Shown: positions 58,616 through 61,324 of the stretch, in pieces
Layout of the letters: each line of letters begins with the position of its first letter
Position numbering within the stretch: position 1 is the first letter of the stretch
Source of the DNA: a virus
Reading direction: 5' to 3' (one strand)
Virus record (IMG/VR): IMGVR_UViG_3300023174_007394
Location: 15,642-79,641 of that record
DNA length: 64,000 nt
The notes under the pieces: generated by a model
Seen by the model: only the letters and a program-made list of their open reading frames with translations
What the model was told of the DNA's origin: nothing
The model's database searches: none
Program-made: the position numbers and the translations under genes

Positions 58616-59257
58616 TTATTTACTCTCTCCTTTATCTGATGCATATTTTACACCCATAATAGTTCCCACTATAGAAAAAGCATTGGTCAATAATATCCCA
58701 AACATATTGCTCCATGTGGATCCTATGATCTGTGTGTCTTTTCCTGTTAGCATTGCTATTGCATACATGATTGTTGTAATAACACCTACACTCAATATAA
58801 CAAGCAATGCAACCTTAACTATTGTGCTGATTAATTCCGTTTGAGATTTCTTTTGAATAATATCAAGATCGTTCAGTGCGGATTCTTTTGCCTTTTCTGC
58901 TTCTTCCTTTAATTCCTCTGCTATCTGCCTTTGTCTATCTGCCTCTTCTTTTGCAGTAATAGCATCATTCTTTGCACCCTCTGCATTATTTAAAGCCTCC
59001 TTTAAATCATCTGTAAGCCCTTGATTTTCTTTTTGCTTATTTAAAAGATCTGTATTTTGTTCCTGTACTTGCTTTGTTACCTCCAGTCTTTTTCTCCTGG
59101 ATGATTTATCTTTTTCTATAGCTTCTTTTAAGTAATCAGAAAACTCGTCATCTCCTTCCTCCGCTTCCAGTATCTTTAAAATGTTTCCCTCAAGAAACAC
59201 TCTTTTTGTTTTCTGAGCATCAAGAATAAAATCACGAGTTATCTTATTTACTATCAT
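58616..59257 (-). CDS. Coiled-coil protein with two C-terminal TM helices
   Basis: Long E/K/A heptads, then VALLVILSVGVITTIMYAIAML and MFGILLTNAFSIVGTIMGV; TAATG-coupled to the response regulator. Confidence 0.8.
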   Translation of the reverse strand: MIVNKITRDFILDAQKTKRVFLEGNILKILEAEEGDDEFSDYLKEAIEKDKSSRRKRLEVTKQVQEQNTDLLNKQKENQGLTDDLKEALNNAEGAKNDAITAKEEADRQRQIAEELKEEAEKAKESALNDLDIIQKKSQTELISTIVKVALLVILSVGVITTIMYAIAMLTGKDTQIIGSTWSNMFGILLTNAFSIVGTIMGVKYASDKGESK

Positions 59258-59688
59258 TACTTATAAATTGTGAATTCCTTAGTTTTTGCTTTATATGCTG
59301 CAAAATCTTTTTTAAAATCTTCAAGCCTTGGCTCTATATCATCTGACTTAATTATCCAGAACTGAGCTCCTGCTGCTTTTGCCTTTGCTTGTTCCTCCGG
59401 CTCGTTTGATGATGATATAATGCCTATCACAACCCCGTTGCCATATTCGTTATTTACTTTTCTAATAAGCTCAATGCCATCATATGATGAACCTATTATA
59501 TTAAGATCTACAAAAACGCACTCAGGTCTTCCTGAGTTATCTTTTTGCCATCCTTCAAACATTTTTGCTGCTTCGTCTGAGCTGTCTAGGCTTTCGAGTG
59601 ATAATGAAATGTCAAGAAGACTACAAGCATCTTCAAAGACTAAGTGGAAAAGACTTTCATCATCAACTAATAAAATTGAATCAATCAT
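59257..59688 (-). CDS. Single-domain response regulator (CheY-like)
   Basis: LLVDDE, FVDLN (phospho-Asp), ISSS, IIKS; no output domain. Confidence 0.9.
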   Translation of the reverse strand: MIDSILLVDDESLFHLVFEDACSLLDISLSLESLDSSDEAAKMFEGWQKDNSGRPECVFVDLNIIGSSYDGIELIRKVNNEYGNGVVIGIISSSNEPEEQAKAKAAGAQFWIIKSDDIEPRLEDFKKDFAAYKAKTKEFTIYK

Positions 59689-59701
59689 GGGTATGGTTAT
59701 T

Positions 59702-61324
59702 TTATTTTAATTGGATCTTCATCTGAGTTCCTATTTCGGGAAGTTTTCCACATGTTATAGAGAATCCATGTTCTTCCAATATAGCAATACAAATGTTCAA
59801 TCCTAATCCAGTTCCTGATTCCTTTTGTCCTTCCTTACGTGTATAAGGCTGGGAAAGATATTTAAAATCCTCAGCGCTTAATCCTCTTCCGTTATCCTCT
59901 ATAAAAAGATTGTTTTCTATTCTATAGATTTTAACAAATTTTGTTGCGCTGTCATTATATTTTAATCCGTTGCGAATTAAATTATCAATTGATGTACAAA
60001 AAAGAGCTTCATTAACTTCACATTCTCCAAGATTCTCGAGTATTACTTGCGGACGATATGCAGTTGCTGATAGATAATCTTCAAGAATAGCATTTAAACT
60101 ACATACAGATTTATTAAGTACCACGTCCTTTTTTACAAGATTTGTAAATTCATAAACACCTTTGTAAACTTTTTGTGTGTGTCTTAGTCCTTCCTTAATC
60201 ATCTTAAGAGGAGCTTCTATTTTTAATTCTTTTGCTTGGGCATCTGTTAATCTTCTATCAAGTGATGAAAGCCCTCTAGGCATGTATGTGTTTATTCCGC
60301 TATGCATGTCATGTCTAAGGATTTTTGCTGCATGTTCTAGATATGTGTTTTTCTTTTCAATTTCCTTTTGCTGATCAATTACATTAGTGATATCTGTAGC
60401 AATTTTCATAATACGATAGACTTTACCATCAGTATCTATAATTGGATTGTAAGTGGCTTGTAAATATATTAATGATCCATCTTTACGAACTCTTACAATT
60501 TCACCCATAAAGAATGTTCCAGATCTAAGACCCTTCCAAAAATCAACATACTCTGGCGATTTTTCGTATTCATCCTCTACAAATATCCTATGGTGTTTAC
60601 CTATAATTTCAGAATCTGAAGAATAACCCATTGTTTCTATAAATAGATGATTAGCAAAAATTATATTTCCACTAAGATCGAATTCAATCACAGCATTAGA
60701 TTTGTTTATTGCATTCATTCTATTGCGAATCTCTGCTTCTTTTCTCTTTAGTTCTGTGATATCCTGGCGGATTGACATAAATCCTAAAAAATTATCCTGA
60801 GAATCAAATTGTCCTTTGATGAATGTATCAACATAATATAGTTGTCCGTCTTTAGCACGATTTGTACAGATCTCATTCCATATGGCTTTATCCTTAATAA
60901 CAGTTTTGTACATATTTGTCCAAAACTCCTTGGGATGTGTTCCAGAATTAACTATATTATGATCATGACCTATTGCTTCTTCTAGAGTATATCCAGATAC
61001 ATCTGTAAACTTTTTGTTGATATATGTAATTTTTCCTTTTGAATCAGCTTTTGATACTATTGCAGAATTCTCTATGAATGATTCTAATTCTTTCATATTT
61101 TTAAGCTGCTCACCGCTTATAAGATTTTTCATATTGTGTGAGTAATCCCTAAATAAGATATAAAAACATGGGAGACATCCAATAAAGCATAAGAATTCTG
61201 TCCATCTTGTAATAGGCGTAGAGGGTATATGTTCAAAAAGGACTACAATCTTTAGGACTAAAAAAATCAGCATCAAAAATGCCGACACAAAAAAAGCTAT
61301 TTTTGTTCTTATATTATACTTCAA
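59702..61324 (-). CDS. Membrane-anchored PAS-PAS histidine kinase
   Basis: Two TMs, two PAS/PAC domains, H-box ILRHDMHS, N-box NLIRNGLKYN, DNGRG, GTGLGL. Confidence 0.92.
   Translation of the reverse strand: MKYNIRTKIAFFVSAFLMLIFLVLKIVVLFEHIPSTPITRWTEFLCFIGCLPCFYILFRDYSHNMKNLISGEQLKNMKELESFIENSAIVSKADSKGKITYINKKFTDVSGYTLEEAIGHDHNIVNSGTHPKEFWTNMYKTVIKDKAIWNEICTNRAKDGQLYYVDTFIKGQFDSQDNFLGFMSIRQDITELKRKEAEIRNRMNAINKSNAVIEFDLSGNIIFANHLFIETMGYSSDSEIIGKHHRIFVEDEYEKSPEYVDFWKGLRSGTFFMGEIVRVRKDGSLIYLQATYNPIIDTDGKVYRIMKIATDITNVIDQQKEIEKKNTYLEHAAKILRHDMHSGINTYMPRGLSSLDRRLTDAQAKELKIEAPLKMIKEGLRHTQKVYKGVYEFTNLVKKDVVLNKSVCSLNAILEDYLSATAYRPQVILENLGECEVNEALFCTSIDNLIRNGLKYNDSATKFVKIYRIENNLFIEDNGRGLSAEDFKYLSQPYTRKEGQKESGTGLGLNICIAILEEHGFSITCGKLPEIGTQMKIQLK

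Follow-up and report, generated by a model that had tools for sequence, protein, structure and literature searches.

A candidate phage phosphorelay linked to a virus-only membrane-hairpin protein with a possible role in lysis control

We analyzed a 64,000-nucleotide stretch of virus DNA (positions 15,642 to 79,641 of the IMG/VR record IMGVR_UViG_3300023174_007394; hereafter, the window), in which three genes on the minus strand, between positions 58616 and 61324, encode a sensor histidine kinase (HK), a stand-alone receiver (RR), and a protein with a long coiled-coil-like helix and a C-terminal transmembrane (TM) hairpin (CC). We propose that this triad constitutes a phage phosphorelay that acts post-translationally on a membrane protein regulating lysis, a reading for which we consider the case evenly poised. 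Its parts differ in strength: going by the sequences, a working phosphorelay is very likely and the receiver probably acts on CC, whereas regulation of lysis by the hairpin is a proposition that could go either way, and the same balance applies to the cue being a redox one. The evidence comprises intact catalytic motifs, strict linkage of the three genes, domain swaps within the CC family, a complementary phyletic distribution of the receiver and of sensor-fused hairpins, and the lysis-gene neighborhood in relatives.

A discrete three-gene cassette of large phages

The HK gene (59702..61324; 540 amino acids, TTG start; all features of the triad given here and below lie on the minus strand) encodes two Pfam PAS domains and a HATPase_c domain, the latter present in all 81 homologs, and is followed by RR (59257..59688; 143 amino acids), which matches Pfam Response_reg, and CC (58616..59257; 213 amino acids). 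The sequence itself shows a 13-nucleotide gap between the HK stop codon and the RR ATG, and a TAATG overlap of the RR stop with the CC start. An earlier note, drawn up by a model from the letters of the window alone, had described these three open reading frames (ORFs) as an operon with just these junctions, and they lie where it placed them. Related viral loci (157 fetched, 99 after dereplication) preserve the order HK-RR-CC on one strand practically universally; in 66 of 95 loci, the RR stop and the CC start overlap, in 86 of the 95 the junction measures at most 8 nucleotides, and CC occurs without a receiver nearby in two or three loci. The note had staked its reading on the third gene being conserved with the pair, and that linkage holds across the approximately 99 dereplicated loci. 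Alignments from the related viral loci, covering 81 kinases, 76 receivers, and 76 CC proteins, form the basis of the invariance statements that follow.

DNA homology to the closest relative (80.8%) extends from 58641 to 61324 only and so covers exactly the stretch between the HK start codon and the CC end, with unrelated flanks on either side, and the flanks of the closest relatives (kinases 79-87% identical) share nothing with those of the window. By this comparison, the triad is a discrete cassette that appears to move between contexts. The phages bearing the CC family range from 120 to 430 kb. CC clusters in the ESM Atlas are virus-only; in metagenomes there are at least 7,630 clusters at 90% identity, on contigs of up to 611 kb, and a profile search of 1.84 billion protein representatives (50% identity) gave 258 matches. 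Among 185,579 species genomes there are 8 matches, all in metagenome-assembled genomes (MAGs) of 8 different phyla, which suggests misbinned phage contigs. Because the family's presence in species genomes amounts to these eight MAGs of eight phyla, the triad is not a copy of a host operon, a possibility that the earlier note had itself raised against its reading.

The kinase and the receiver retain their catalytic motifs

The N-terminus of HK forms a predicted membrane hairpin (residues 8-58; 61151..61303) with a periplasmic loop of about 13 amino acids, as judged from a hydropathy scan and a topology inferred from the positive-inside rule. TM1 (approximately residues 8-30) is clear, and TM2 (41-58) is shorter and weaker; the latter must be a TM segment, because the kinase would otherwise not be cytoplasmic. 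Next come PAS1 (residues 86-200; 60725..61069), PAS2 (residues 205-321; 60362..60712), a dimerization and histidine-phosphotransfer (DHp) domain (60125..60361), and a catalytic ATP-binding domain with N, G1, and G2 boxes (59705..60019; HATPase_c 47.3 bits versus a cut-off of 26.4). The H-box, LRHDMHSG, holds the presumed phospho-acceptor His338 (codon 60311-60313), and R337, H338, D339, H341, and S342 through G351 are invariant in the 81 kinases. So are N452, the G1 residues D477, N478, G479, and G481, and the G2 residues G506 and G508. The Pfam HisKA models do not match the DHp domain, but the H-box is nonetheless at the expected distance from the ATP-binding domain. HK is thus a kinase with intact predicted catalytic motifs, much as the earlier note had it when describing a two-TM PAS-PAS kinase with intact H, N, and G boxes.

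PAS1 is most similar among Protein Data Bank (PDB) entries to MmoS (3EWK, E = 2.5e-24, across the PAS1 + PAS2 tandem), Aer (8DIK, 4.6e-13), and NifL (2GJ3, 1e-9), and residues 89-207 match the NifL model TIGR02938 at a domain E value of 1e-31, a match that falls below the full-length NifL cut-off, as expected. The likeness to Aer/NifL-type flavin PAS domains already remarked on in the note is therefore borne out, and PAS1 belongs by sequence to the MmoS/NifL/Aer clade, whose members bind flavin adenine dinucleotide (FAD), a cofactor that PAS1 would be predicted to share. PAS2 is recognized by Pfam PAS_9 and PAS_3 and by BLASTP to P0185, a one-component relative discussed below. Taken alone, its closest solved relatives are MmoS, Aer, NifL, and LOV domains, and domains of its type are fused straight to the hairpin in one-component relatives. 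The sensors of the 81 homologous kinases include PAS (63/81) and GAF (11/81) domains, TPR in one, and also a periplasmic type; some loci have a second kinase with an exported domain. Two kinases precede the receiver in L094:2276-6005, L134:2195-5996, and about 17 other loci, with a protein of about 200 amino acids, itself exported, between the kinases and a signal-peptide-like N-terminus on the second. Such loci may have several inputs converging on one receiver.

RR matches Response_reg (PF00072) at 34.3 bits versus a cut-off of 30.2, and has neither an output domain nor a DNA-binding domain. Invariant in the 76 receivers are the acidic pair D9 and D10, the predicted phospho-acceptor Asp61 (codon 59506-59508), and the Ser/Thr, aromatic-switch, and Lys positions (S92-94, W111, K114), in keeping with the earlier description of a receiver with all catalytic residues and no output domain. 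With a mean column identity of 83%, the receiver is more conserved than HK or CC. Its AlphaFold2 model (predicted local distance difference test score [pLDDT] 90.9) shows the canonical (beta-alpha)5 fold of five strand-helix units with a C-terminal extension, and a fold search gave 402 PDB receiver matches at E<=0.001, the nearest being Rcp1 (1I3C), RcpA (1K68), and the Deinococcus DrBphP RR (6XVU), all stand-alone receivers of phytochrome kinases. The sequence is divergent, with a best PDB sequence match of 7e-7. A PF00072 search of the window's record missed the record's own receiver and a PF00182 control had no match anywhere, making both searches uninformative.

The CC protein and its domain swaps

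In the AlphaFold2 model of CC (pLDDT 86.8), a small N-terminal element (residues 1-36) precedes a single helix (37-171) that runs into TM1 and, after a 4-residue loop, a second helix (176-210). Hydropathy places the hydrophobic segments at 139-172 and 185-203, as anticipated by the earlier reading of a coiled-coil protein with two C-terminal TM segments. Conservation is bipartite around a variable spacer. The N-domain (residues 1-70; 59048..59257) has the invariant residues G24, K28, Y42, D50, R54, R57, L58, T61, K62, Q65, and N68, and we propose that this conserved input module is the docking site for the phosphorylated receiver. The helical spacer (residues 71-138; 58844..59047), which lies inside the modeled helix and is coiled-coil-like, is poorly conserved. 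The membrane hairpin (residues 139-207; 58637..58843), the proposed effector, is the best-conserved part, nearly invariant from T175 to Y205. A role for CC as a histidine-phosphotransfer (Hpt) protein was ruled out, as no His occurs in the invariant or near-invariant columns of the 76 sequences. Eight loci (L047:4905-5408, L068:5497-5997, and six others) carry an additional gene between those for the receiver and CC; its 166-amino-acid product combines two TM helices with a coiled coil at the C-terminus, which is the CC layout mirrored.

The hairpin also occurs joined to other sensors. Proteins of 374-396 amino acids (P0185) carry two PAS2-type domains in place of CC residues 1 to ~97, the rest of the helix and the hairpin being 60-79% identical to those of CC, and exhaustive profile searches recovered a 227-amino-acid form with an FAD-type PAS1 domain on the hairpin (P0234) and a 360-amino-acid GAF-hairpin form (P0215). 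In all three forms, the sensor stands where CC has its N-domain, and the hairpin retains 60-79% identity. Reciprocally, P0317, P0340, and P0348 place the N-domain and helix of CC before HisKA-HATPase_c (library-wide E values of 1e-16 to 8e-21); these proteins are soluble histidine kinases from metagenomic contigs of up to 100 kb, and scans of IMG/VR and of the JGI metagenomes gave no such fusion. In a further protein, P0272, the N-domain and helix continue as a truncated FecCD permease; we discounted it as a probable chimera arising from assembly or gene calling. Given that the hairpin accepts several sensors and that the N-domain occupies the sensor position, the pattern is one of input module, signaling helix, and output module, in which the N-domain looks like the input and the hairpin like the output.

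The distribution of the receiver is complementary to these fusions. No receiver and no kinase domain lies within 7 kb of the PAS-fused form in 80 loci, and the receiver family is absent from all five records with this form, three of which are 91-100% complete (120-272 kb). In all five near-complete records with the N-domain form, there is one receiver, adjoining the single CC gene. The receiver would hence be needed only where the N-domain is present, and this phyletic complementarity is the strongest indication at hand that the receiver targets the CC N-domain. Together with the domain swaps, the absence of the receiver from sensor-fused phages backs the earlier suggestion that the relay would reach a membrane protein post-translationally.

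Association of the hairpin with lysis genes

The ORFs flanking the triad at the 99 loci were clustered, and the most frequent families were annotated. The most frequent of all, found in 43 of the 99 loci, is an endolysin combining PG_binding_1 and GH19 domains, and other recurring families include Peptidase_M15_3, Amidase_2, and CHAP enzymes and Phage_holin_4_1. Sixty-nine of the 99 loci have an endolysin or holin no more than 3 kb away, and 42 have one no more than 1 kb away; among the 41 loci whose flanks extend for at least 3 kb in both directions, 31 have a lysis-family gene within 3 kb. When five near-complete genomes (290-430 kb) were queried with GH19, four returned a single gene, which lies 11-510 bp from the triad in three of them and 4.3 kb away in one; the chance expectation for a single gene in a genome of 290-430 kb is, roughly, a few percent. 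Lysis enzymes also adjoin the PAS-fused form in about 70 of 80 loci and the GAF-fused form in two of three; as the phages with fused forms are smaller and of other lineages, the association recurs independently.

In relatives, the hairpin gene usually has other small TM ORFs or a holin_4 gene beside it. A role for CC as a regulator of holin triggering is therefore more likely than one as the holin itself, for which CC would also be atypical, with its 213 amino acids and cytoplasmic part of about 140. The holin-like lysis timer of the earlier note thus fares unevenly: the neighborhoods of relatives speak for a connection with lysis, but no lysis gene is adjacent in the window, CC matches no holin family, and a regulator is the likelier form of such a timer.

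Proposed mechanism and alternative explanations

We envisage a membrane-anchored kinase that would read a cytoplasmic cue via its PAS domains, because the outer loop of the anchor hairpin is only 13 amino acids long. With PAS1 of the FAD type, the kinase would probably be sensing the infected cell's redox or energy state. Holins fire on the collapse of the proton-motive force, which would make an energy-state sensor a natural input for a lysis regulator. The kinase would autophosphorylate at His338 and pass the phosphate to Asp61 of the stand-alone receiver, which in its phosphorylated state would act by contact, docking on the CC N-domain. The signal would then run along the long helix of CC into the two-helix membrane hairpin, which as the effector would most likely set or delay holin triggering as an antiholin or holin modulator, and would probably not be the main holin. 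A more general form of the proposal, which we put forward tentatively and hold to be somewhat less probable than the even case above, is that large phages of lakes and seas time lysis by their own signaling, with a flavin-PAS relay or a fused sensor gating a new hairpin family that controls holin triggering, and with the N-domain as a hitherto unrecognized docking module for a phosphorylated stand-alone receiver, a module that has also been reused to gate kinases.

Several observations weigh against the lysis-regulating relay or narrow its reach. The window's cassette has no lysis gene adjacent to it, and no lysis-flank family occurs anywhere in the 79.6-kb record; the closest wall enzymes (CHAP, NAGPA) are 9.6 kb away, and hydropathy shows no TM segment in the five ORFs around the cassette, which belong to no family except Fib_succ_major. 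About 30% of the related loci likewise have no recognizable lysis gene nearby, and gene neighborhood is in any event correlative. CC matches no Pfam family, holin families included; its marginal PHROG match (PHROG 27150, E = 0.003) is to a family of unknown function, and fold searches gave no PDB relative and, in BFVD, only CC's own family. The kinase sensors vary among PAS, GAF, TPR, and periplasmic types, so a redox cue would apply at most to the PAS1-bearing subset, and the N-domain-kinase fusions show that the N-domain is an input module, not that the receiver is its input. A lysis role for the phage of the window is especially uncertain, being drawn from its relatives, with three quarters of the genome unseen.

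Some of these points would suit an account in which the relay is real but the hairpin effector is unrelated to lysis timing and serves instead in ion flux or the proton-motive force, superinfection exclusion, or envelope upkeep, its proximity to lysis enzymes being a matter of late or membrane genes clustering together. The loci distant from lysis genes (the window's own and those ~30% of relatives), the dissimilarity of CC to any holin family, and the movement of the cassette as a unit between unrelated contexts all fit such an effector. However, the enrichment beside the single endolysin gene of the 290-430 kb genomes is far above the rough few-percent expectation, and the association arises independently again in smaller phages of other lineages, which carry the PAS- and GAF-fused forms; we thus regard a function apart from lysis as rather unlikely. 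A different objection concerns the step from the receiver to CC: the N-domain might sense a separate signal, with the receiver acting on a host protein, as a phosphate sink, or in kinase feedback, and the linkage reflecting co-expression only. A domain that stands at the sensor position and also ahead of kinases does resemble an autonomous sensor, and the conservation of the receiver above that of HK or CC could reflect a conserved host target. Set against this are the loss of the receiver family exactly where PAS replaces the N-domain, the overlap of the RR stop and CC start in most loci, and the lack of an invariant His in CC, so that it is no phosphotransfer protein, which together reduce this objection to a small chance.

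The membrane hairpins of both HK and CC, with their very short outer loops, might alternatively mark CC as an accessory kinase subunit that tunes activity via TM-TM contact and is not the output. Accessory membrane genes are common inside two-component system operons, and membrane partners are known for some intramembrane-sensing kinases. Yet the hairpin is fused to PAS or GAF domains in hundreds of cases where neither a kinase nor a receiver occurs in the locus or genome, and evidently works without a kinase, which makes a purely accessory CC quite improbable. Finally, the bacterial character of the PAS, HATPase_c, and receiver domains could suggest that the triad is a moron, i.e., a host operon captured recently and lacking any phage-specific role. 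That is hardly credible, given a third protein that is virus-only, a DHp domain beyond the Pfam HisKA models, a receiver divergent from solved ones (7e-7 at best), at least 7,630 clusters at 90% identity on contigs reaching 611 kb, and one copy per phage genome. A phage-encoded relay with CC as its output and lysis as the regulated process is accordingly the reading that we prefer.

Genomic context of the cassette in the window

The IMG/VR virus record, which comes from lake water, is 79.6 kb long, and the window covers its 3' 64 kb. CheckV gives the record a completeness of 26%, which implies a genome near 300 kb. The record encodes homologs of the terminase, tail sheath, tail fibers, DnaB, UvsX, and SbcC, confirming a tailed phage. 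The same sequence recurs, at 100% identity, in an independent freshwater study, and since the contigs of that study span the junction of HK with the upstream gene, the arrangement on the HK side is not an assembly artefact. The terminase is about 33% identical to those of phage PAU, Tenacibaculum PTm1, and Lak phages, and tblastn with CC and RR against the INPHARED cultured phages gave no match. A 205-amino-acid protein with a Fib_succ_major domain is encoded near the cassette (61981-62598, minus strand). This family is common in Fibrobacter and Bacteroidota and, with the similarity of the terminase to those of Tenacibaculum and Prevotella phages, gives a weak hint of the host.

Promoter-like sites occur at the cassette at chance level, and the terminator scan showed none between the three genes, except for a weak hairpin inside the RR gene, which is consistent with one transcript without being evidence for one. 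PADLOC gave no match for HK, RR, CC, or the neighboring proteins. A calcineurin-like metallophosphoesterase (57005-57802, minus strand) is encoded 0.8 kb downstream of CC, and homologs with 48-50% identity lie directly upstream of the kinase in several closer relatives (L012, L016, L017, L150), such that it may be a recurrent neighbor of the cassette. As candidates for wall activity, the record offers only a CHAP enzyme and an NAGPA-type phosphodiester glycosidase encoded by overlapping genes (47466-49039, minus strand). Rfam recognizes a full-length transfer-messenger RNA (tmRNA; 56542-56975, minus strand; 75.5 bits, E = 2e-29) and, ten bases downstream of it, a 91-nucleotide tRNA-like element (56442-56532, minus strand; 38 bits), neither of which is reported by ARAGORN. 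Close to both lies a gene for a TROVE/Ro60-like RNA-binding protein (63068-63970, minus strand; Pfam TROVE; PHROG 850, E = 2.5e-32).

Significance and comparison with known systems

Burst size and phage fitness depend on when lysis occurs, and the controls known so far are holin clocks, dual-start antiholins, and the inhibition of lysis triggered by superinfection. If real, a phage two-component system that reads host redox or energy state and, bypassing transcription, acts on the lysis machinery would add a new control logic to these. The swaps between relay-coupled and sensor-fused forms separate input from output and name a candidate for a new receiver-binding domain, and the parts are small enough that they could serve in engineering as signal-gated lysis switches. 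We found no description in the full-text literature of a phage kinase-receiver pair tied to lysis, and a survey of jumbo phages mentions only a divergent receiver, never in kinase systems (PMC7824862). New in the present analysis are the FAD-PAS, GAF, and N-domain-kinase architectures, the phyletic complementarity of the receiver, the exact boundaries of the cassette, and a locus detached from lysis genes.

In its flow from a kinase to a receiver-only protein that would act by contact, the triad resembles the pathways of single-domain response regulators, viz., CheA-CheY-FliM, Cph1-Rcp1, and the bacteriophytochromes with their stand-alone receivers; the predicted fold of the phage receiver is closest to Rcp1, the DrBphP RR, and RcpA, which are of similar size. 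The H-box of the phage kinase has a His-Asp pair, as do phytochrome-type kinases. Unlike those pathways, the phage system is virus-encoded, its proposed target is a virus-only membrane protein, its receiver is divergent, and it has no chemotaxis or light context. On the sensory side, PAS1 aligns over its full length with MmoS, NifL, and Aer, sharing the motifs HxIVNSG..H and W..NR.KDG, but the Trp at the 'DMW' position of MmoS is Tyr in the phage domain, and the output is the phage kinase.

The parallel on the output side is with holin-antiholin control (T4 T with RI/RIII, lambda S105/S107, N4 gp63/gp62), in which, as proposed here, a small phage membrane protein with cytoplasmic termini, whose gene lies within or next to the lysis cassette, may delay or set off lysis on a signal. 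The closest in form is N4 gp62, a two-TM, N-in/C-in regulator of the pinholin gp63, which has the same hairpin topology as CC (PMC12642591). CC differs from these proteins in having no sequence or fold similarity to them, in its cytoplasmic helix of about 140 amino acids, and, in the window, in having no lysis gene adjacent; moreover, the known systems read superinfection or use dual starts, and none is known to be driven by a phosphorelay or by fused PAS or GAF domains. Among bacterial systems, LytSR with LrgAB/CidAB is a two-component system tied to membrane energization that controls holin- and antiholin-like proteins, and its regulator LytR is DNA-binding and acts on transcription. The phage receiver, in contrast, has no output domain, and the control that it would exert on its membrane hairpin would be post-translational and virus-encoded.

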